Made by a program: the position numbers and the translations under genes. 42,975 bases of DNA, taken from the IMG/VR virus record IMGVR_UViG_2563366932_000014. One strand, given 5' to 3'. The notes under the pieces were generated by a model. It made no database searches. It was not told the DNA's origin and was given only the letters and a program-made list of their open reading frames with translations. Shown piece by piece: positions 1-40,648 of the stretch. The stretch's first letter is position 1. Each line of letters opens with the position of its first letter. Source of the stretch: a virus (taxonomy: Duplodnaviria > Heunggongvirae > Uroviricota > Caudoviricetes).

Positions 1-198
1 ATGGCACTGGACAGTTATGCATCTCCGAATATTATTCCGGAGCTAAGACAACCGAATGCCGCAGCAGGTAAGATCACGCTAGGGGGGCTGGACAGAATGG
101 CTGTTACGCCCAGTGTGAAGAAAAGAAGGCTAAGTATGGTAGAATTTCCATACGCACAGACCTTGTTATCCGACTATACAGCCTGGAAGGCACTATGA
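1..198 (+). CDS. hypothetical small protein (65 aa), first gene of a two-gene operon
   Basis: ORF starts at window position 1; its stop overlaps the next start (ATGA at 195-198), suggesting translational coupling; no recognisable family. Confidence 0.3.
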   Translation: MALDSYASPNIIPELRQPNAAAGKITLGGLDRMAVTPSVKKRRLSMVEFPYAQTLLSDYTAWKAL

Positions 199-983
199 CA
201 AATCTACAACTGGAAGAAAGATTTAGGGCGCTTGAGAAAGATTACGATGCGCTCATTTCCACAAAATATACTGCGCAGAACGTTCTCACTCACACTATGG
301 AAACCTATGTTGATTCTGGTAAATATAAAAACTGGATCGCCAGAGTGAAAAAGTTAATAGAGGACAGCTACGGAAAAGAGTCTGATTATTACAATGACTT
401 CAATACTGTAAACAGCAGGTGGTCTTCTAATTACAATACACTGATCAAAAGTTATAAACCGTTGTTTGATGCGGCGAGAGATGATCTTGCGCACTCTGCT
501 GTCAGTACTAATACTCCTCAAGAAGGTTCGCCGCTGAGCCTCGTACTTAATATTCTTAACAGGTTTCCGACCTTTGTTCGCCAGTTAAAGAGGCGGTACA
601 ACGGCCGTGCGCCGCTTGAAGTTAATGATGAGTATGACGTACAGGATTTGATTTATGCACTGCTGACGCTTCATTTTAATGATATTAGGGCGGAAGAGTA
701 TACCCCCAGCTTTGCGGGCGCGGCCTCAAGACAGGACTTTCTTTTGAAAAAAGAGAAAATTGTGATAGAGGTGAAGAAAACCCGTGAATCTCTGGGAGCG
801 GGTAAAGTTGGTGGAGAGTTGCTTATTGATATGGCGCGCTACCGCGCTCACCAAGACTGCGATACGTTGATCTTGTTTGTATATGACCCGGATTGCTACA
901 TAAATAATCCTTTGGGCGTGAAAACCGATCTGGAATCTAAAGACGCGGAAGGAAAAGTGAAGGTTGTTATTGCGCAGTTCTGA
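195..983 (+). CDS. hypothetical protein (262 aa) with C-terminal PD-(D/E)xK-like nuclease motif
   Basis: long ORF coupled to upstream ORF; C-terminal residues ..EYDVQDLIYALL.. and ..EKIVIEVKK.. fit a D...(D/E)xK pattern by eye; fold not verified. Confidence 0.5.
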   Translation: MTNLQLEERFRALEKDYDALISTKYTAQNVLTHTMETYVDSGKYKNWIARVKKLIEDSYGKESDYYNDFNTVNSRWSSNYNTLIKSYKPLFDAARDDLAHSAVSTNTPQEGSPLSLVLNILNRFPTFVRQLKRRYNGRAPLEVNDEYDVQDLIYALLTLHFNDIRAEEYTPSFAGAASRQDFLLKKEKIVIEVKKTRESLGAGKVGGELLIDMARYRAHQDCDTLILFVYDPDCYINNPLGVKTDLESKDAEGKVKVVIAQF

Positions 984-1016
984 CACGCTTAAGTGTCACC
1001 TTACAGGATTAGGTTT

Positions 1017-1065
1017 GCGGCCGTGCCAGCAGGACGAGCATGAAAAAGGCCGCTGGCACGGCCGG
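1017..1065. terminator. 13/14-bp inverted repeat hairpin between convergent genes (possible terminator)
   Basis: gcggccgtgccagc at 1017-1030 pairs with gctggcacggccgg at 1052-1065; only a weak T-run follows. Confidence 0.35.
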
Positions 1066-1070
1066 ATTTG

Positions 1071-1364
1071 TCATCTTTGCCAGGTCAAATCAAAATCTAC
1101 GTGAAAATCCGCAGGCTTAAGCTCGCAACTGCCACCACGCCCAATTAACGACGTTATGTTTACAACGTTTGAACCTGTTGAGATGGCAAGTTGAGTGTCA
1201 TCTGTAAACGTGATGATTAGCATTTCAGTCTGATGAACCTGTACTCCAGTTTTCTGAAAACCAATCTGGACAGATTTCACCGTTTTCCCAACCATTTCAC
1301 GGGCTTGATTGATAGAGTAATTAGCTTCAACTTGTAGGTCATTCCTGAACTTGGGTAGTGTCAT
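1071..1364 (-). CDS. hypothetical protein (97 aa)
   Basis: ORF with GAGGA-type RBS upstream of ATG; no recognisable family. Confidence 0.45.
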   Translation of the reverse strand: MTLPKFRNDLQVEANYSINQAREMVGKTVKSVQIGFQKTGVQVHQTEMLIITFTDDTQLAISTGSNVVNITSLIGRGGSCELKPADFHVDFDLTWQR

Positions 1365-1494
1365 TTTACATCCTCTTTAGTGAAGTTTTCGCTATTTAAA
1401 TCAGCAGCATTCCTTTTAAATCACTGGCATGTCAGCAGTGGATAGTCTGAGTGTAACGTCCAGTGAGGGGAATAAATATTGGTCAGACTTTGCA

Positions 1495-1520
1495 CAAAAG
1501 AGCCAACTATCGCGGGCTCT
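1495..1520 (-). terminator. putative rho-independent terminator downstream of the GIY-YIG gene
   Basis: stem agagcc/ggctct with 10-nt loop, followed on the minus strand by TTTT. Confidence 0.4.
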
Positions 1521-1577
1521 CTCTCATCATGTGCGAAAATTGACCACAATATGAAATCCAGTTCCATTCCGAAATCA

Positions 1578-2301
<724 letters not shown>

Positions 2302-2715
2302 TAGACTGGCCCCCTGAATCTCCAGACAACCAATATCACTTATTTAAGTGATAGTCTTAATACTAGTTTTTAGACTAGTCATTGGAGAGCAGATGATTGA
2401 TGTCTTAGGACCGGAGAAACGCAGACGGCGTACCACACAGGAAAAGATCGCAATTGTTCAGCAGAGCTTTGAACCAGGGATGACGGTCTCCCTCGTTGCC
2501 CGGCAACACGGTGTGGCAGCCAGCCAGTTATTTCTCTGGCGTAAGCAATACCAGGAAGGAAGTCTTACTGCTGTCGCCGCCGGAGAACAGGTTGTTCCTG
2601 CCTCTGAACTTGCTGCCGCCATGAAGCAGATTAAAGAACTCCAGCGCCTGCTCGGCAAGAAAACGATGGAAAATGAACTCCTCAAAGAAGCCGTTGAATA
2701 TGGACGGGCAAAAAA

Positions 2716-3735
<1,020 letters not shown>

Positions 3736-3833
3736 TCAATTGACAACTTATAATCCCTACTAGTTAGCATTATGATTTCCAGAGTGAGGAATATAAAAAT
3801 CTCTGTTTCTGGCACATAACAGCCCTTAAGATC

Positions 3834-3891
3834 GTAGCTCGCCATCATGGGGTGTCGGGGGGCGGAGGTTCAAATCCTCTCGTGCCGACCA
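3834..3891 (+). other. 3' fragment of a tRNA-Pro(GGG)-like gene (anticodon loop through CCA), probable attachment-site remnant
   Basis: ..tcatggggtgtcgggg..ggaggttcaaatcctctcgtgccgacca: T-arm GGAGG-TTCAAAT-CCTCT, acceptor 3' strand and CCA present; no 5' strand pairs with the acceptor, so not an intact tRNA. Confidence 0.6.
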
Positions 3892-3906
3892 AAAATCCCT
3901 TAAGAA

Positions 3907-3931
3907 CCAGCCTATTATGGCTGGTTTTTTT
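3907..3931 (+). terminator. rho-independent terminator just after the tRNA fragment
   Basis: stem ccagcc/ggctgg, loop tattat, then 7 T. Confidence 0.7.
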
Positions 3932-4099
3932 ATGATTGTTTTTTATGCGGAGAAATACCGGGGAATAATTGGGGTAAAACACCTTTAGGCTATTCACTTA
4001 GCCTACCACCATCAAAATCTTTCCGAATGTATCCATCTCTTTTTTCTTATGCAGCTAAAACGAAGTCTTGATACTGTTTATTTACACAGATAAGAATAA

Positions 4100-4119
4100 T
4101 ACTGTCTACAAACGCAGTA
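4100..4119. promoter_or_regulatory. LexA (SOS) box-like site upstream of the dinI-like remnant
   Basis: tactgtctacaaacgcagta matches the TACTGT-N8-ACAGTA pattern with one mismatch, about 14 bp before the ATG. Confidence 0.5.
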
Positions 4120-4132
4120 CAAAAGAAGTGTT

Positions 4133-4380
4133 ATGCGTATTGAGATCTCCATAGCCAAAGACAAAATGACCAAATGCCAAACGGCGCTGTGGACGCGTTA
4201 AAGGAAGAATTAACCCAACACATTGGCAAGCGTTATGACGATGTGGAGATGATCGTAAAAGCCACCAGCAACGATAGTTTTTCAGTTAGACATACTGCAG
4301 ATAAAGATTGAGCTAAAACTTTCGTTCAGGAAACTCTGAATGATACCTGAGAGTCTACTGAAGAGTTGTTTGTTCACTAG
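4133..4380 (+). pseudogene. dinI-like gene remnant (frameshift plus two in-frame TGA stops)
   Basis: frame A gives [11 protein letters not shown]..; a second frame continues ..[37 protein letters not shown].. then stop; AKTFVQETLNDT stop ESTEELFVH stop; the pieces together resemble DinI (recalled, not searched). Confidence 0.5.
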
Positions 4381-4675
4381 TTAGCACGTAGGAAATCATT
4401 CAATACTCGCACTATCGGAAGTTCACCAGCCAGTCGTAGCACGTCCTTGCAAACGACGTGCCTACGGTTTCAATCACCTCTCACCATCAATTCTATCAAT
4501 AATAATTAAACAGCGCCTAGACAAAATAAATAACAACAAGTCAACAACCTCGACAGGATGCCGATGGGATGATGAAGAGATAAGAAAGAATAACCAGTAA
4601 AGCCCTAAAACGTCAGCGTTCAGACGCGTTTTTTACTTAATCGGTAACAAATACGTTGTATCATAGCAAAATAAA

Positions 4676-6625
4676 ATGATTGTTCTAAATCAGATTAACT
4701 CCTCACTTTTGTACAATGTCGCTTACAGGTATACCATGAAATCCGAGACGCTAACTGTCCAACAACTTTTTCAAGACCGCCGACAATACTGTGTTCCATT
4801 CTATCAACGTGCCTATGTATGGACTCAGCAAGACCAGTGGTCAGCTCTACTGGAGGATATCCTAGAGAAAGTACAATCCCGGCTCTCGGGTACAAAACCA
4901 ACTCCCCATTTCCTTGGTGCGGTTGTACTGGAACCTCAATCAAAAAAAGGATTATTAGGTGTAGATTCCATACATATTATTGATGGTCAGCAACGATTGA
5001 CCACTCTTCAATATGTTCTGGCATCCATCCGATTAGCATTACGTGCTACGGATCTTTCCAGCTTAGAGGCTCTCATTTCGCCTTGCCTGAAAAACTCAAA
5101 CGAAGACACAATGCGAAATAAAGAAGTAGAACGCTTCAAACTGTGGCCAACTTTTCGGGATCAAACTCATTTTATTCAAAGTTTTAATGTTGAAAATATT
5201 GACGATCTCCGGGACGTATTCTCTGATAGTTTCACGCAGCATGGTACGTTGCGTAAGCATTTTAATCACCCGCCATCACTAGAAGCATTATGTTTTTTTA
5301 CTGAAGCCTTTATAAAATGGATTAAAATAGAAAACCACTCACCACAAGAAAATGCTGTAGCTCTAATTGAGGCTGTCTTAACAGATCTGAAACTGGTAAG
5401 CATATTTCTCGAAGCTGAAGATGATGCCCAAATAATTTTTGAAACATTAAATGGGCGAGGGGCGGAACTTCATGCTACGGATCTTATTCGCAACTATATC
5501 TTTATGTGCGCTGAGCATGAAAATATTAATGCTATTGAATTATATGAAAATGAGTGGAAGAGCTTTGAAGATAAATACTGGTCGGAAAAACAACGCCGTG
5601 GACGTATTAATAAACCACGCATGGAGTGGCTAGTACATGCGACATTGCAATCAGAAAGGCAACGTGAAATTGATCTGTCTCGCCTTTACAATGAGTATCG
5701 TGATTATGTAAGTAAGGACTTGTCTTCACAACGAGCAGATCTGCAAGTAAAGCGCCTCAAACAATATGCATCACAATATAAAGAATTGGTTGATGGTTTT
5801 GGCACAACCCCCATCTCACACTTTGGATATCGCATCGCAGACTATGATGTGACGACACTTTATCCGCTTGCTTTGTTCATTTCGATAGCTAACATCGCTG
5901 ATGATGAGAAAGCAGCCATGTATAATGATCTTGTCTCCTACGTAGTACGAAGAGCCGTATGTGGCCTGACGCCAAAGAATTACAACAATGTATTTATGAA
6001 TGTATTGCGGCACTTGGCTAAAACGGAAATTTCCAGTGTTGAGTTACGTAATATCCTCAATAACTTAAATGGCGAAGCCTCACGTTGGCCTGGTGACTCA
6101 GAATTTCTCAACGCTTGCATCAATGCTCCACTTTATCCTGGCAGGCTCGACGCACCGAAAATGCGCTCAATGTTAACGGAACTTGAAAGAGAACTTTGTC
6201 GCCAAGTAAAGACAGAAAAGCCTGATGTTCCAAATCTTTCTAATCTCGATATCGATCATCTTATGCCTCAAAGTTGGTATTCCTGTTGGCCTCTCGAAAA
6301 TGGTCGTATGGTGACAAATTCAGATGCTACGGTATTGAACCAAATTGTTCTGTCTGGAACCGATCTTACCCCTGAACAGCTACTGGTAAGGAAACGGCAA
6401 CAAGCGATATCTACTTTGGGAAATCTAACTTTGCTTAACCTTAGCGTAAACCGTTCTGTTCAGAATGCTGTATTTCTGAAAAAACGTGATGCTCTCATCG
6501 TCCACACCAATCTACGACTGAACATTCCACTTATAGTTAAGGATAAATGGGATGAGGATGAAATCCTGGAGCGGGGTAAAAAGTTGGGGGAAATTGCATT
6601 GAAAGTATGGCCAAAACACGATTAA
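4676..6625 (+). CDS. GmrSD-family (DUF262 N-terminal, DUF1524/HNH-like C-terminal) putative type IV modification-dependent restriction endonuclease
   Basis: 649-aa ORF; N-terminal ..FYQRAYVW.. and DGQQR motif; C-terminal ..DIDHLMPQS.. and ..NLSVNRSVQN.. His-Me finger-like; AT-rich by inspection; start may be the ATG at 4736. Confidence 0.65.
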   Translation: MIVLNQINSSLLYNVAYRYTMKSETLTVQQLFQDRRQYCVPFYQRAYVWTQQDQWSALLEDILEKVQSRLSGTKPTPHFLGAVVLEPQSKKGLLGVDSIHIIDGQQRLTTLQYVLASIRLALRATDLSSLEALISPCLKNSNEDTMRNKEVERFKLWPTFRDQTHFIQSFNVENIDDLRDVFSDSFTQHGTLRKHFNHPPSLEALCFFTEAFIKWIKIENHSPQENAVALIEAVLTDLKLVSIFLEAEDDAQIIFETLNGRGAELHATDLIRNYIFMCAEHENINAIELYENEWKSFEDKYWSEKQRRGRINKPRMEWLVHATLQSERQREIDLSRLYNEYRDYVSKDLSSQRADLQVKRLKQYASQYKELVDGFGTTPISHFGYRIADYDVTTLYPLALFISIANIADDEKAAMYNDLVSYVVRRAVCGLTPKNYNNVFMNVLRHLAKTEISSVELRNILNNLNGEASRWPGDSEFLNACINAPLYPGRLDAPKMRSMLTELERELCRQVKTEKPDVPNLSNLDIDHLMPQSWYSCWPLENGRMVTNSDATVLNQIVLSGTDLTPEQLLVRKRQQAISTLGNLTLLNLSVNRSVQNAVFLKKRDALIVHTNLRLNIPLIVKDKWDEDEILERGKKLGEIALKVWPKHD

Positions 6626-25993: not shown

Positions 25994-26109
25994 TCCTGGT
26001 TAAATTTCATTTTTCGCGGGTATAAAAAAACGATGGGGCGGGCAGTCCGGAAGACGTCAGGTCACAGGGATTTGACCCGCCCCTCCCCTCAGAAAGTTGA
26101 GAATTATTA

Positions 26110-26460
26110 TCACTTCAGTCGTTCACGGGCCGTCTTCGCCTTATGACACGGCCAGCACAGGCTCTGCAGATTGCAGTCTGCATCAGTGCCGCCATGCGCT
26201 TTAGGGATGATGTGGTCAACGGTTTTCGCCTCACGCACCACACCGACATGCAGGCACAACTGACACAGGCCTTTGTCACGCTTCAGCACGCGCGCGCGGA
26301 TAACATCCCACTTCGAACCGTAGCCGCGCTGGTGACGGGATTGTCCTGGCTTGTATTGTTTCCAGCCTTCGCTTTTGTGGCTTTCACAATAGCCTGACGG
26401 ATCAGTGGTGGTTTGGCGGCAGCCGCGAACGCGGCAGGCTTTTGGGGTTCGTGGGGGCAT
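26110..26460 (-). CDS. HNH endonuclease (packaging-associated)
   Basis: Cys pairs plus ..DHIIPKAHGGTD..N..LC..CH.. HNH motif, upstream of terminase. Confidence 0.8.
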   Translation of the reverse strand: MPPRTPKACRVRGCRQTTTDPSGYCESHKSEGWKQYKPGQSRHQRGYGSKWDVIRARVLKRDKGLCQLCLHVGVVREAKTVDHIIPKAHGGTDADCNLQSLCWPCHKAKTARERLK

Positions 26461-26562
26461 TTAAAGTGGGATCTAACTCTAATAATTTAAAAAATTTAAT
26501 TGGGTCTTGATATTAATCACATAGACTCAATGCTCTTTAGTTCTTACATAGGTGGTTGTATT

Positions 26563-27003
26563 ATGAGTATCCCCAGTTTAGATGTTCATAAAGTTGTTAA
26601 GTGCGCAGAGCATAAAAAGGCTTTAGATGCAATATCTCTCAAACTTAAGAATAACATTATTGACTCAAGCTCTGAATACGATTTTCTTGGCGACACAATA
26701 ATTTTCAATAAAGATAAAAAAAATAGGTTAACCCTCAAACTTTCAACATATGAACTAGAACTTATTTTCAAAGAAACACTGCTAGTCATTGATGAAGCTC
26801 CTGTATTGAAGTTTGCTGCCATTGACCCAACCGATGAAAATAACAACGAGCTGATTGATTTATTTTTATCCAAAGGTGGATTTATTTATATTAGAGAATA
26901 CAAATCCGAGCCACATTATGAGTATGGCGACACTTCTCTATTTTTACATATACTTGACGCTACTCTTAAAGAGCTTAAATCTGCAAACAAAATATCCTAT
27001 TAA
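26563..27003 (+). CDS. hypothetical protein, AT-rich insertion transcribed against the late operon
   Basis: ORF with AGGTGG RBS before the ATG at 26563 (listed ORF starts at 26500); very AT-rich by inspection; no recognisable family. Confidence 0.5.
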   Translation: MSIPSLDVHKVVKCAEHKKALDAISLKLKNNIIDSSSEYDFLGDTIIFNKDKKNRLTLKLSTYELELIFKETLLVIDEAPVLKFAAIDPTDENNNELIDLFLSKGGFIYIREYKSEPHYEYGDTSLFLHILDATLKELKSANKISY

Positions 27004-27109
27004 ATAAATTTTTGCTAACATAGCCCCGCGCCATGACAAGATTTTCTGTTCTAGATGCAAGGGCTATGTGTGAATATCTATAAACAAAAACCCCATCCGG
27101 TGATTTTTG

Positions 27110-27361
27110 TCATTTTTTAGCCATCTCAATTGCGGCATCAAAAAGTCGTTCAAGAATAAAATCAGGGTACTGTAATTTTTCTTGCTCGATATGAAGCTCA
27201 TAAATTTTCCCTTCCCACTCCCATTTAAAATTAAATCCAGAAGCAGAAGGTGCGAAATGTGTTTTAGCTTTAGGGTTAGCGTAACCAGCAACAGTCAACA
27301 CATCAAACTTAAAATCTTGAGGTTTAATACGCATAATCATATCCTTTGCCAAGTTCATCAT
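27110..27361 (-). CDS. hypothetical protein (83 aa)
   Basis: AT-rich ORF between the lysis cassette and packaging genes. Confidence 0.4.
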   Translation of the reverse strand: MMNLAKDMIMRIKPQDFKFDVLTVAGYANPKAKTHFAPSASGFNFKWEWEGKIYELHIEQEKLQYPDFILERLFDAAIEMAKK

Positions 27362-27431
27362 TATTCTTCGCGATTATAAAACAATGAATAAAATCATTAA
27401 AGCATAGACGTTAAATATCCTCAAAATGTGA

Positions 27432-27869
27432 TTAGTTGGGACATTGCGTCCTGATATACTCCTGCAAGTAATTGACCTGTGAGGTTATCTTGTCGATTCC
27501 ACTTCGGAGACGGTAATAATGGAGTTCAGCATCTGCTGTAAGTCTAGGGCTTTCTCCATCGCCCATGCCGCTGGCTCCGGTCGTTGACTTTGTACAGGTG
27601 GCGGCGACTTGCAGGCGCTTATGCCCAGCAGAAACATCAGCACGAAGACTTTCGATAGTCGCATTAGCATCAGCAAGCTCCTTTGTATATCTGGCATCGA
27701 GTTCAGCTACATTACGTTGACGCTTCTGCATATCAGCGATGATGGATGTGGCTTTATCGCGCTGTACTTTGTAGACGATGGCGTCATCACGGTAATTATC
27801 AACAGCCCATGACAAGCAGACGATGATGCAGATAACCAGAGCGGATATAATCACCGTTACTCTGCTCAT
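27432..27869 (-). CDS. Rz: i-spanin Rz
   Basis: [22 protein letters not shown].. and overall translation closely match lambda Rz (recalled). Confidence 0.85.
27485..27670 (-). CDS. Rz1: o-spanin Rz1 (embedded in Rz in the +1 frame)
   Basis: embedded ORF with lipobox-like ..LLGISAC and proline-rich segment. Confidence 0.65.
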
Positions 27870-28342
27870 ACCTGAATCTCTTTGACCGTTCCGCCGGCTT
27901 CTTTGAATTTTTCAATCAGGCTGTCAGCCTTATGCTCAAACTGACCATAACCAGCTCCCGGCAGTGAAGCCCAGATATTGCTGCAACGGTCGATAGCCTG
28001 ACGAATATCACCGCGATCAATCATCGGTAAAGCACCACGCTCTTTAATCTGCTGCAGTGCAACAGCATCCTGGCTTTTTGGAGAGAAGTCTTTCAGTCCA
28101 AGCTGTTTACGGTATGCATCCCACCAGCGGGAAAGAAGCTGGTAGCGCCCGGCAGCCGTTGATTTGAGTTTTGGGTTTAGCGTGACAAGTCTGCGAGGGT
28201 GATCGGAGTAATCAGTGAATATTTCTCCGCCCACAATGACGTCATAACCATGATTACGTGTCGGTTGTAGCCCATTATCCGTTCCTTCTGACCAGGCCAC
28301 CATATCGAGGAAAGCTTTACGCTGAGGATTAAGATTTTGCAT
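27866..28342 (-). CDS. R: endolysin (lambda R-type lytic transglycosylase)
   Basis: ..[39 protein letters not shown].. near-identical to lambda R (recalled). Confidence 0.9.
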
Positions 28343-28733
28343 TTTTCACCCCTGTCAGTCGTTCCCAGAAGTACGTCAGTGCAACCGAACCCATCGCACC
28401 ACTAATCCCCGCAGTTGCGAGAATCATGTAAATACTGAATCCACTTTCGATACTGATTAGGCCACCAATAACACCGGTGAATCCTGATACAACTATCTGA
28501 GCGAGGGTATTTATCCAGCTCCACGTTGCTTTACTCTGCTTCACATCAATCAGGTAACGGACAAGCCCCCCCCAACCTGCGATGATCAGCAAAACAAGCC
28601 AGAACGCTCCGGCAAGATTCTCTTTTTCGTGCATATGAATAGCCGCAGTTTCGCCTCCGACAGAAAATCGGAGCGTGAAATGATATGTTGATTTATTATT
28701 AATTCGAAAATTACATTCTAATTCATCAGGCAT
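28329..28733 (-). CDS. holin (class I-like, three TM segments)
   Basis: three hydrophobic segments and charged C-terminus, overlapping the endolysin start; true start may be the internal Met (..MHEKENLAG..). Confidence 0.6.
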   Translation of the reverse strand: MPDELECNFRINNKSTYHFTLRFSVGGETAAIHMHEKENLAGAFWLVLLIIAGWGGLVRYLIDVKQSKATWSWINTLAQIVVSGFTGVIGGLISIESGFSIYMILATAGISGAMGSVALTYFWERLTGVKNAKS

Positions 28734-28785
28734 TGATGATTTTATAATAATAAAGGCCGTTCGTTACGGCCTTTATTATTGATAT

Positions 28786-29121
28786 TTATTTTACATCCCA
28801 AGGTAGTTCCTCAAGAGAGAAGACTAATTCATTATCAATAATTTCGTATTCTGCATAACCTTCAACCTCTCCTGAGAAGTTATTGTCAACGCATCCTTCA
28901 TAATAGCTATATGGTGCTATAAAGTGAAACCCATATTCATCTATCTCTGTGATTTCAAAATTGTAGTAATCGTAAGAATATCGAATATCATCATCAGAAA
29001 TAGAACTAAGTACATAGTTATTAAATTTATCGGAATGCTTAACGATAAGTTCTGACAACGCGTCAAGATTCTCTGGAGAGATATTTCCTAACGGTAATCT
29101 GTACTCAACGGCATTAATCAT
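28786..29121 (-). CDS. hypothetical acidic, aromatic-rich small protein (111 aa)
   Basis: AGGAGG RBS; AT-rich; lies between the late terminator and holin. Confidence 0.5.
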   Translation of the reverse strand: MINAVEYRLPLGNISPENLDALSELIVKHSDKFNNYVLSSISDDDIRYSYDYYNFEITEIDEYGFHFIAPYSYYEGCVDNNFSGEVEGYAEYEIIDNELVFSLEELPWDVK

Positions 29122-29174
29122 ACAACCTCCTTTTTAACTGATATGAGGTTATATAATGTGTTTCAGTACAAGTA

Positions 29175-29199
29175 AATAAAAACCCGCTCAACAGCGGGT
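29175..29199 (-). terminator. rho-independent terminator downstream of the late promoter (tR'-like)
   Basis: minus strand acccgc tgttga gcgggt followed by TTTTTATTT. Confidence 0.6.
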
Positions 29200-29246
29200 T
29201 CGTGAAAATTATCAACGGCAGACATACAAAGCCCATCGTTGAGAAA

Positions 29247-29275
29247 ATCTTATCCATATTTTTTGAAAAATGCAA
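29247..29275 (-). promoter_or_regulatory. candidate late promoter (pR'-like) downstream of the Q-like gene
   Basis: minus strand TTGCAT - 17 nt - TAAGAT between the Q stop and the terminator; weak -10. Confidence 0.3.
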
Positions 29276-29306
29276 GCTTCATGTCACTATCTTCGGCGAA
29301 AATCAC

Positions 29307-30101
29307 TTATCTCGTCACCTTTCTCAATTGTGTTTCAGCATATGCTTCTTCCTGCCAGCACTTTGTTACTAGTTTATCAATTACGTCTGCATATCCTTTG
29401 TACCACTGATAATCAGTCAGGTCTGGAACCAGCTTCTGGACATGACGTCGTGCCAGTGTAGTCGGTAAACGGCTAAACCGGTTTCCATTGCAACGCCCAC
29501 AAGTCTTATAAACAGGCGTGCCATGAAGCCGGGTTCTTTTTTCATCCAGGACAATACCTTTACCCTTACACCCTCTGCACGCCGTGCTGACTTCTCCCTT
29601 GCCATGACAATGCTGACACAGTTCCTTCACCCACTCTTCTTTGATAACGGATTCCCCGCTTCTGGAATGTTTCACCACTTCGCGCAATACATTATGAAAT
29701 CCAGTACCAGTACAATGCTCACAGCGAGCCTTACTTGCCGCAGACCTGGAATAATCAGCAAAGGCAAAATTCACAAGGTAAGGGATGATCTGTAACCGGG
29801 TTTCTTCACTCAATTTGTTCAATGTCGGGTTATCCAGTGCCATCGCGTAATTGAGCAGGCCTTCAATCGCAAACTGAGGATCCTGAACACCAACTTTTGC
29901 CAGGAATAAGGCAAACCCAAGCGGTGCTTTCGACTGCACCATCCCCTGCGCAGCCATTACATCCGTAATTGTTAAACCACCCGAGCCTGTCGCCGATGCG
30001 TCATCGCTCAATTTTGGAGATTTTGGGGAGTAATATTTCGGTAAGGCTTCAAGGTTCATGCTCGTTCTCCACTTACACCAGTACGCCAATTGCCAGCGCA
30101 C
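29307..30101 (-). CDS. putative late antiterminator (Q-like) with four CxxCxGxG zinc-finger repeats
   Basis: position directly upstream of late promoter/terminator and lysis genes; CEHCTGTG, CQHCHGKG, CRGCKGKG, CGRCNGNR repeats. Confidence 0.5.
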   Translation of the reverse strand: MRWQLAYWCKWRTSMNLEALPKYYSPKSPKLSDDASATGSGGLTITDVMAAQGMVQSKAPLGFALFLAKVGVQDPQFAIEGLLNYAMALDNPTLNKLSEETRLQIIPYLVNFAFADYSRSAASKARCEHCTGTGFHNVLREVVKHSRSGESVIKEEWVKELCQHCHGKGEVSTACRGCKGKGIVLDEKRTRLHGTPVYKTCGRCNGNRFSRLPTTLARRHVQKLVPDLTDYQWYKGYADVIDKLVTKCWQEEAYAETQLRKVTR

Positions 30102-31068
30102 GATCGATAAAACGAAATATCAGCTCCAGCTGGGAGCCATACATCTCTTCAAATGCCACGGTATCCGCATGCAGCTCGTCGTGATGCTTTCTGCACAAAG
30201 GCAACACAAAAAGGTCATGCGCTTTTGTACCCATTCCACCCTGTCCGTGGCCTATCAGGTGGTGGGGATCATCAGCGGGCTTTCCACAACATGCACACGA
30301 CTGTGTCTTAACCCAGCGCGTGTACTTTTCATTAACCCAGCGGCGACGTTTTGGGCGTAACATAAAAGACTCCGGCGACTCCGGATCCACTTTCAGCGCC
30401 AGCACCTTTTTCGCCTTATCCTGGATGATGCTGGTGGCAGGAACCGAAGGCACAAGGTCACTTTCCCGGGTGACAGACGGCACAACAGGCTTCGGTAATC
30501 TCAGTGCCTTACGGGCTGCACTTTCCGGTAAGGCATCCGCCAGATCATTACGAACCAGCCACCAGCACAGTTCCGGCATTGTCACAACGTGACTGTCATC
30601 AAAACCGAGATCCCGACGCACAACAGACAACACCCAGCGGGCACAGTTATCCGTTGCCATTGATTCCAGCCGTTCCGTGAACTGATCGCGAAGCAGGTTA
30701 TCGCAGTGCCAGCACAGACGGATTGCGCCCGGCGCGTGTCGCATTGTGGTCATGTTCTCGCTGTGCCATCCGGAATGAGGCCACTGACAGCCCTTTTCAC
30801 GAAGTAACCAGCTTTCAAGACATTCCACACCCCCCGCACGACGAATAACTGCCTCATTGCGGAACACGGCCCGAATGGCAGGATCATCCGCCAGCGGTTG
30901 TGATGCCGCCGGAACGGCACCACTGGCAAAAGATGAATAACGTTCCGGCTCAGGCTCCAGCAGGACACGCCCCTGCATAAACAGGGGCATCAGCTCTGAA
31001 CCGGGCCTGAACAATACGATCCCCATACGCGGGGCAATTTCAGGGGTCAGTAGTGCTCTCACGGTCAC
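30073..31068 (-). CDS. DUF968-like prophage protein with C-terminal HNH-like Cys/His motif
   Basis: 331-aa ORF; ..CACCGKPADDPHHLIGHG..CRKHHDELH.. Confidence 0.55.
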   Translation of the reverse strand: MTVRALLTPEIAPRMGIVLFRPGSELMPLFMQGRVLLEPEPERYSSFASGAVPAASQPLADDPAIRAVFRNEAVIRRAGGVECLESWLLREKGCQWPHSGWHSENMTTMRHAPGAIRLCWHCDNLLRDQFTERLESMATDNCARWVLSVVRRDLGFDDSHVVTMPELCWWLVRNDLADALPESAARKALRLPKPVVPSVTRESDLVPSVPATSIIQDKAKKVLALKVDPESPESFMLRPKRRRWVNEKYTRWVKTQSCACCGKPADDPHHLIGHGQGGMGTKAHDLFVLPLCRKHHDELHADTVAFEEMYGSQLELIFRFIDRALAIGVLV

Positions 31069-39781: not shown

Positions 39782-40648
39782 ATGAATCAAAATCCATTCT
39801 CATTCTATGACTTTCTTGGATATTTAATACCAGGTGGTTTTTTTATCCTATTAATGTATTTCTGTGGTTTGACATTCGATCTAGATATTGTTATTGACTT
39901 AAGTGAATTGCTCAGAGGTCAAAGTCAAATCTTTGGCATTTTGAACTACGCTTCAATAGTTATTATATCTTATATAGCTGGACATTTTATTTCTATCACG
40001 TCAGCATTTTTTATCGAAAAATACATGAATAAAGAATTAGGATATCCTTCCAAATATCTATTTAAAAAATTGATAGATACCTCAGAAAGCATTTGTAGCC
40101 CATCATGCGATGAGAGAAGCGCTGATAAAAAAACAAAAATAAAGAATCGCATAATCAAATGCGTATTATGTCCAATAATACTATGGGATTTTATAACACA
40201 AAAACTATGTTATTCTCAATCTCTACCATTTCATTTAGCTAATACAACATGGTTAATGATCAAAGAAGGTTATGAGAAAAAGTTCATAACAAATCGCCAA
40301 TTATTACAAGATAAAAACGGACTTGATGATGATCTCTTCAGATTGGCATATCATTATGTTTATGAGTTTTCAAAACAACATCAAACAAAAATTCAAAACT
40401 ATGTTGCATTATATGGTTTTTGCAGAAACATATGTTTAATCTTTATAATTTCATTTTGGGTATCAGTTCCAACCTTTATTTATCGATTATGTACTCATAG
40501 TGATTATCTTTATAGTTTACTTTCAATAATGCTTAGCTTTTTCTTCGTCTATGTTTTCTATGTTGGTTTTGTTAAATTTTATAGAAGATATACTTTAGAA
40601 GTATTAATGGCATTTGCTGTACTTCAAAGTAACGACACTATTCGTTAA
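39782..40648 (+). CDS. very AT-rich four-TM membrane protein of unknown function
   Basis: two N-terminal and two C-terminal hydrophobic helices around a ~140-aa soluble region; GGAGAG RBS before the ATG at 39782; listed ORF starts at 39758. Confidence 0.55.
   Translation: MNQNPFSFYDFLGYLIPGGFFILLMYFCGLTFDLDIVIDLSELLRGQSQIFGILNYASIVIISYIAGHFISITSAFFIEKYMNKELGYPSKYLFKKLIDTSESICSPSCDERSADKKTKIKNRIIKCVLCPIILWDFITQKLCYSQSLPFHLANTTWLMIKEGYEKKFITNRQLLQDKNGLDDDLFRLAYHYVYEFSKQHQTKIQNYVALYGFCRNICLIFIISFWVSVPTFIYRLCTHSDYLYSLLSIMLSFFFVYVFYVGFVKFYRRYTLEVLMAFAVLQSNDTIR

Follow-up and report, generated by a model that had tools for sequence, protein, structure and literature searches.

Between the gene for its Q-type late antiterminator and its holin gene, a Caudoviricetes sequence of 42,975 nucleotides (IMG/VR record IMGVR_UViG_2563366932_000014; this whole stretch is referred to below as the window) carries a self-contained accessory ("moron") cassette. 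The cassette is AT-rich, and its open reading frame (ORF) is the first gene after the late promoter pR' and the terminator tR'. This ORF (28786..29121, minus strand) encodes a 111-aa acidic, Tyr-rich protein (WP_000606308.1; PHROG 13663). We propose, with a probability of roughly 0.35, that the product acts in phage-host or phage-phage conflict by binding stoichiometrically, in the cytosol, to a basic protein that probably binds nucleic acid, or by serving as a decoy for it. The cassette resides in a lambdoid prophage of extraintestinal pathogenic Escherichia coli that is SfV-like, Mu-tailed, and apparently intact, with integrase, repressor, replication, Q, lysis, terminase, HK97-type head, and contractile-tail genes.

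All elements of the cassette, as well as Q and the holin gene, lie on the minus strand. Q (29307..30059; PF03589 Antiterm, E 2.7e-54), annotated in E. coli UTI89 as antitermination protein WP_001047143.1, is followed by a pR'-like late promoter, TTGCAT-17 nt-TAAGAT (29247..29275), which was read from the sequence and is presumed to be active. Its -35 and -10 elements align with TTGAAT/TTAAAT, TTGCAG/TTAAAT, and TTGCAA/TAGTAT at the Salmonella, Enterobacter, and Duffyella loci, respectively. A terminator scan and RNAfold place a tR'-type intrinsic terminator (GAACCCGCTGTTGAGCGGGTTTTTATTT) at 29174..29201; its hairpin has a 9-bp stem including five GC pairs, a 4-nt loop, and a T-run, with a folding free energy (dG) of -14.9 kcal/mol, and is homologous to the annotated SfV terminator. 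An AGGAGG ribosome-binding site (RBS; 29126..29131), likewise read from the sequence, ends 4 nt 5' of the ATG, and purine-rich counterparts are present at the homologous loci. An earlier note, made from the sequence of this DNA alone, had listed a promoter-like element downstream of Q, a terminator at 29175-29199, a strong AGGAGG RBS, and a very acidic, Tyr/Glu/Asp-rich 111-aa ORF ahead of the holin, and each of these is present. It had not mentioned two further features: the ORF is followed at once by a strong hairpin terminator, and a candidate promoter lies in the stretch from tR' to the RBS.

The cassette terminator (28744..28780; terminator scan, RNAfold dG -20.2) is a 15-16-bp hairpin between an A-run and a T-run, lies directly 3' of the ORF stop, and is potentially bidirectional. 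The Salmonella, Enterobacter, and Duffyella homologues likewise have an analogous hairpin and T-run behind their stop codon. The candidate sigma-70 promoter belonging to the cassette itself, TTTACT-17 nt-TATAAC (29148..29176, minus strand), is a prediction with 9 of 12 matches; the Salmonella homologue has TTTACA-17-TATAAC in the same place, and the -7 T is absent from both. The upstream blocks TTTATTTAC and TTATATAACCT are both kept with Salmonella, and TTATATAACCT is identical, despite saturated synonymous sites in the adjoining gene. A second, more distant subfamily contains an invariant TTG(A/G)CA-15-TAnnnT block with an A-tract 5' of it (7 loci from several genera). Promoter-like blocks are conserved in these comparisons, and a promoter of the cassette's own is predicted.

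Homology breakpoints delimit the variable cargo segment on the minus strand to 28666..29178, as more than 3,000 E. coli genomes show homology that ends at ~29176-29180 on the Q/tR' side and resumes at ~28666 on the holin side. When an in silico cassette-deleted query was used to search for an empty site, no E. coli genome joined both flanks directly. The 3' end of Q, pR', and tR' are ~90% identical to those of SfV, mEp460, and the Stx2c and Stx2k phages (Stx, Shiga toxin) and 85% identical to the ydfT region of the K-12 Qin prophage. In each of these, and in thousands of E. coli Q modules, homology ends right after tR'. The cargo that follows differs: SfV has orf47 and a DNA methyltransferase, mEp460 has a methylase and other small ORFs, and phiSTEC1575-Stx2k has three tRNAs and several ORFs besides stx2k, which lies 2.3 kb downstream of the module. 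The ~90% identity with the Stx2c and Stx2k modules supports the earlier suggestion that this is the slot in which Stx phages carry their toxin genes. In line with the moron concept, which reportedly goes back to Juhala and Hendrix in 2000, the cassette is present or absent among close relatives (the same Q-pR'-tR' module holds other cargo in SfV, mEp460, and the Stx2k/Stx2c phages), has its own downstream terminator, and deviates in base composition.

Sequence conservation confirms that the ORF is a genuine gene, as it has 25+ homologues and shows a clear bias against nonsynonymous differences. Relative to the Salmonella homologue, the proportion of nonsynonymous differences (pN) is 0.17 and that of synonymous differences (pS) is 0.80, the synonymous sites being saturated, while the corresponding rate ratio (dN/dS) is 0.12-0.39 in other homologue pairs. 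These values indicate purifying selection on the protein, and a spurious ORF is ruled out by conservation and pN/pS. The protein has an isoelectric point (pI) of 4.05, 24 Asp and Glu residues (22%) against 5 Lys and Arg, and a net charge of -19; it contains 12 Tyr, and 17% of its residues are aromatic. Compared with the 56 annotated coding sequences of the matching UTI89 stretch, its charge per residue (-0.171) is the most negative, the next being -0.095, its Tyr content (10.8%; mean 3.4%) is the highest, and the G+C content (GC) of its gene (0.333; mean and window 0.50) is the second lowest. The ORF thus stands well apart from the other genes in charge, Tyr content, and GC and is no chance reading frame. 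Low GC is common to all homologues (0.36-0.40, or 0.33-0.40 including the window gene). Sequence analysis detected neither a signal peptide nor a hydrophobic or membrane segment.

An AlphaFold2 model based on a 25-sequence alignment (mean predicted local distance difference test score, pLDDT, 86.7; predicted template modelling score, pTM, 0.77) consists of a strand at residues 3-10, helices at 19-28 and 30-41, and strands at 48-50, 56-60, 64-75, 80-95, and 98-105, and suggests a compact, single-domain alpha+beta roll. Conservation is mostly in an aromatic core (Y7, F33, Y48, F55, F67, Y73, Y74, Y92, and W108) and extends to the loop of a hairpin, G76-C77-[KR]-D79-x-[ND], and to an L-D-E-x-x-W motif at the C terminus. 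In its predicted general architecture, the first strand is N-terminal and the helices after it pack against a curved antiparallel sheet, as in NTF2-like, cystatin-like, and VirB8-like rolls (TraE 5i97, OrfG 8s7l, 3d9r). The predicted model has no enzyme-family match, and its top 60 hits are free of DNA mimics, anti-CRISPRs, immunity proteins, and nucleotide sponges. A Foldseek search of BFVD returned nothing at E <=0.001, and PDB sequence and profile searches gave chance matches only (E >=0.18). All 25 aligned members carry a net negative charge, ranging from -9 to -20 with a pI of 4.05-4.99, and just some 10 acidic positions are positionally conserved. The alignment does not contain any conserved block of 7-10 columns.

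These results bear on the proposal of the earlier note that the composition would suit a DNA mimic, that is, an anti-restriction protein occupying the DNA-binding groove of restriction or other DNA-targeting enzymes. The charge of the protein, the acidity found throughout the family, and the predicted compact, single-domain form all accord with it. Nothing beyond composition favors a mimic, however, and the small number of acidic positions conserved in place counts against one, as does the comparison with known DNA mimics, which gave no sequence or fold relationship. Classical anti-restriction proteins such as T7 Ocr and ArdA are made first, and expression after Q has the wrong timing for anti-restriction of incoming DNA. 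Moreover, the promoter-like block and terminator of the cassette point to expression in the lysogen too and not late only. The acidity stands as a family-wide property, and a DNA mimic seems improbable. The other part of that proposal, an immunity-type protein, did not hold: there is no adjacent toxin gene in ~40 loci and no match to Pfam, NCBIfam, or PADLOC. Late production, also suggested there, is what we infer from the Q-dependent position of the gene.

The protein matches PHROG 13663 over its full length (E 9.4e-54, residues 1-111 on profile positions 1-111), as do all 25 aligned family members; the PHROG is annotated as function unknown. An exhaustive HMMER scan of 1.84 billion representative proteins yielded 26 proteins at E <=0.001. 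In the same scan, the very large protein P0019 (2,661 aa) gave nine separate partial matches to profile residues 68-102 (E 7.7e-10), which probably reflect Tyr/Asp-rich beta-hairpin repeats such as YD/Rhs and not homology. Identity to the Salmonella and Citrobacter homologues is 72% and 69%, respectively, and all organism-named members belong to the Enterobacterales (Salmonella, Citrobacter, Enterobacter, Duffyella, and Erwinia). The carriers include animal-associated as well as plant-associated or environmental members of this order, Erwinia and Duffyella being examples of the latter. The family is known only from prophages and uncultivated virus genomes (UViGs), plus one non-prophage chromosomal copy. 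No Pfam or NCBIfam hit was obtained for any of the 25 members, the sole Pfam line being NIR_SIR_ferr at a sub-cut-off E of 0.016, and PADLOC-DB returned no defence-system family at E up to 1. A literature search on the accession, the PHROG, and the slot found no study of WP_000606308.1, and none of the prophages described in the transcriptomics of E. coli LF82 is of this type (PMC9928086). This is an orphan family without a Pfam family, literature, or an isolated-phage representative, but its class, a moron in a hypervariable cargo slot, is already familiar.

Within E. coli, an 801-bp region is 100% identical in many complete genomes, among them UTI89, S88, IHE3034, APEC O18, NU14, and ATCC 11775, which annotate the ORF as hypothetical protein WP_000606308.1, and the cassette with these flanks occurs in ~146 of 5,426 complete E. 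coli genomes. This distribution looks like clonal inheritance of one prophage. As the carriers listed by name are mainly extraintestinal pathogens (UTI89, S88, IHE3034, and APEC O18) and the cassette shares both its slot and its predicted dual control with stx (PMC6266700), the product could be a Stx-like cargo, over-produced late, freed by lysis, and acting on competitors or on a eukaryotic host. We give this little credence; the protein lacks a signal peptide as well as any toxin-like domain or fold, homologues occur in plant-associated and environmental Erwiniaceae as well, and the association with pathogens within E. coli may trace to that one clonal prophage. Given that homologues are found in both animal- and plant-associated Enterobacterales, a target inside the bacterial cell is favored over one in an animal host.

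The position of the gene, its most striking conserved feature, is kept across genera. It lies between Q and the holin gene in Salmonella, Enterobacter, Duffyella, Citrobacter, Erwiniaceae, and metagenomic loci, and 9 of 11 family representatives, the window locus included, occupy this interval, although they span at least four Q types and at least four lysis-cassette types. At 27 of 27 IMG/VR loci the gene begins 147-223 nt downstream of Q and lies upstream of the lysis genes; these loci were found with two family members and include many close relatives, so they do not represent 27 independent events. The neighboring Q proteins contain PF03589, PF06530 (121 aa), or DUF1133 together with PF06530 (192 aa), or are represented by a 204-aa protein without a family. 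The lysis cassettes are of the types PF16083+GH24, PF16931+PF05449+GH19, PF04971+Phage_lysozyme, and PF16931+PF05449 followed by a 147-aa product without a family (locus L028). There are exceptions to the placement: in two Citrobacter/Salmonella lineages the gene is surrounded by other cargo and a methyltransferase and lies 2.5 kb downstream of Q, one member is found in a decayed Erwinia tracheiphila prophage near Q fragments, and one occupies a chromosomal gap outside any prophage. The family has no constant partner gene, which makes it most likely that the protein acts alone.

Two observations concern the interval and its surroundings at these other loci. In Citrobacter and Salmonella loci L015/L016/L017 and L022/L023, the Q-to-holin interval is expanded to 3-4 kb; besides the family member it contains small ORFs, three genes on the reverse strand, and mostly also an N6_N4 DNA methyltransferase, resembling the Q-methylase-cargo arrangement of SfV, mEp460, and the Stx phages. 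An Erwiniaceae prophage (L024 6598-8330; L025 2917-4649) encodes a 766-aa S-type pyocin/colicin-DNase (PF06958, PF21431) just 3' of the lysis cassette, a bacteriocin positioned for release by phage lysis, and has a family member in its Q-to-holin slot.

At one Erwiniaceae locus, that pyocin-S/DNase gene is 2.3 kb off, on the far side of the lysis cassette. A role as the immunity protein of a toxin or bacteriocin system was rejected, as the neighbors are Q and lysis genes at all loci examined and no immunity family is matched. The adjacency to Q, pR', and the lysis block would fit a modulator of lysis timing or late transcription that acts on the holin, the endolysin, or Q-modified RNA polymerase. 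However, both the Q proteins (PF03589, PF06530/DUF1133) and the holins (PF16083, PF16931+PF05449, PF04971) next to the gene come from several unrelated families, which makes a specific partner among them unlikely; in addition, phages with the same Q module lack the gene, and one member lies outside any prophage. We consider such a modulator very unlikely. An antiholin or other lysis partner is likewise unlikely, since the neighboring holin families differ.

The expression pattern that we envisage follows from the architecture of the cassette and from established Q antitermination, as in the case of stx (PMC6266700). In the lysogen, weak transcription would start at the sigma-70-like promoter of the cassette and be joined by read-through of tR', and the cassette hairpin would halt these transcripts ahead of the holin gene. 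After induction, Q-modified RNA polymerase would read through both terminators and expression would become very high, the gene leading a Q-antiterminated late transcript in which the lysis, terminase, and virion genes come after it. The product may then bind stoichiometrically to, and neutralize, a positively charged protein that belongs to the host or to a co-resident mobile element, serving as a counter-defence or host-takeover decoy that protects late phage development and not as a virion, lysis, or toxin component. This binder or decoy function is suggested by the lack of a signal peptide or membrane segment, the compact roll, the aromatic core, and the conserved negative charge. Small acidic cytosolic phage proteins most often inhibit host proteins (Ocr, ArdA, and many anti-CRISPRs), which is a prior and not a test.

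Several points weigh against a binder or decoy. The protein has no sequence or fold similarity to any known inhibitor, and its near-invariant G-C-[KR]-D-x-N loop and LDExxW motif could belong to a ligand or catalytic site and not to a decoy surface. Cargo is dumped in the Q-to-S interval generally, and the conserved position could reflect recombination at conserved flanks instead of function. When 50,697 genomes of isolated phages were searched by tblastn with two family members, none matched. The E. coli candidate promoter lacks the -7 T, the usual final T of the -10 element, and the conserved promoter and terminator of the cassette fit a gene of benefit to the lysogen, for defence or exclusion, at least as well.

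The last point leads to the alternative that the gene serves lysogenic conversion, its product blocking superinfecting phages or satellites from the repressed prophage, for example by protein binding, with late over-expression being incidental. The moron layout, with a promoter-like block and terminator that are both conserved across genera, and the AT-rich cargo composition are consistent with this, as is the occurrence of the family in prophages and UViGs with no match in isolated phages. Morons of this layout also include known exclusion genes, such as gp15 of HK97 (PMC11364771). On the other hand, no PADLOC model is matched, known lambdoid single-gene exclusion proteins are mostly membrane proteins whereas the 111-aa protein has no hydrophobic segment, and exclusion leaves unexplained why the gene is kept near-constantly at the first position of the late transcript and not at other prophage hotspots. 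Taken by itself such lysogen-protecting exclusion is possible but hardly probable, and it is nearly as plausible as the binder or decoy.

The same position raises the prospect that PHROG 13663 is a dedicated first-late-gene counter-defence family, its members being decoys made just before the terminase, portal, capsid, and tail proteins. They might pre-empt abortive-infection sensors triggered by late proteins, or satellite parasitism, while low-level expression from the promoter of the cassette would keep the lysogen primed. This would explain why the family holds its exact place although neither the Q proteins before it nor the lysis cassettes after it are related; so specific an assignment is nonetheless doubtful.

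The Q-to-holin interval is the site of Shiga toxin expression, so that a conserved occupant would be made in very large amounts at induction. Here the occupant belongs to an orphan family without fold or sequence relatives, its position is kept across genera, and well-studied E. coli strains of uropathogenic, meningitis, and avian origin, for example UTI89, S88, and IHE3034, carry it. Strict positional conservation and presence in model uropathogenic strains make it a reasonable candidate for defence and counter-defence screens. If the protein is a defence or counter-defence factor, it would represent a new inhibitor family and the first late-operon position would be one used for conflict genes; if it confers no phenotype, it would be one more hypothetical moron. 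The evidence covers architecture, conservation, and predicted fold and holds nothing surprising to a phage geneticist.

Downstream of the cassette, the holin (28329..28634, minus strand; PF16083 LydA-type, E 1.5e-21; RefSeq annotation) is followed by a GH24 endolysin (27866-28342; RefSeq annotation) and Rz (27432-27869; PF03245). The holin frame is open upstream to an ATG at 28733 (window 28634-28733), which would give 134 aa against the annotated 101 aa; as homology to other E. coli holin regions begins at ~28666, the long form is probably not used. An Rfam search over 26000-30200 gave only sub-threshold chance matches (IS102 RNA, E 0.17; mir-374).

Other cargo is found elsewhere in the prophage. 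At the tail-fibre end, a cargo block (window 195-6625) comprises two hypothetical genes, a GIY-YIG gene, a DinI-like pseudogene (4133-4350), and a gene for a 629-aa DUF262 protein (4736-6625). DUF262 is the domain of GmrSD-type type IV restriction enzymes, and the block may be a defence island. Its GIY-YIG gene, which is LEM-3-like (~1575-3684), is interrupted by a 1.33-kb IS2 insertion (2302-3631; left end TAGACTGGCCCCCT) with InsC- and InsD-like ORFs at 2348-2758 and 2716-3621; UTI89 lacks the IS2 and is 99.98% identical elsewhere, so that the window derives from a strain closely related to UTI89 rather than from UTI89 itself. Beside the integrase gene, a 288-aa ORF annotated as hypothetical (39782-40648; unusually aromatic at 18%, and basic, with a pI of 8.6) has the lowest regional GC (0.284) and is likely another cargo gene. 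Finally, a second low-GC island (26470-27400; GC 0.30-0.37) lies between Rz and the HNH/terminase genes. It contains an unannotated 167-aa ORF (26500-27003) on the plus strand, opposite to the late operon, and a 74- or 83-aa ORF (27110-27334 or 27110-27361) on the minus strand, in the orientation of the late operon. Neither ORF has a Pfam or PADLOC match, and the 167-aa ORF has no phage tblastn match. The place and antisense layout of this island recall the phi80 Tai/Ati hotspot for defence and counter-defence upstream of the packaging module (PMC11364771).

Among known systems, the stx operon occupies the identical slot between Q/pR'/tR' and the holin gene. It is under dual control by its own promoter and by Q-dependent read-through (PMC6266700), which is also the control predicted for the cassette. 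The acidic protein has no sequence, domain, or fold relation to Stx, however, and is encoded by a single small gene with no signal peptide and no accompanying tRNA genes. Lambdoid morons such as lambda bor and lom and HK97 gp15 are similar in being extra genes between conserved late-region genes, in their deviant low GC, own terminator, and promoter-like element, and in their absence from close relatives. In contrast, bor, lom, and gp15 encode envelope proteins, whereas a soluble, highly acidic cytosolic protein is predicted here, and the acidic cassette lies directly after tR' and before the lysis genes instead of after Rz or in the tail region. T7 Ocr, ArdA, and PBS2 UGI share the small size and extreme negative charge but no sequence or fold similarity, a different alpha+beta roll being predicted here, and while Ocr and ArdA come first, the acidic gene sits behind the late switch. 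Lastly, Ati (orf64) of phi80 is a counter-defence gene inside the Q-controlled late operon (PMC11364771). It differs in lying upstream of the packaging module and in being paired with the antisense defence gene Tai, there being no partner gene here. The acidic gene nevertheless resembles Ati in being small and accessory and in its presumed transcription as part of the Q-controlled late operon, and we count the role of Ati in phage conflict, as opposed to virion structure, as a further likeness.
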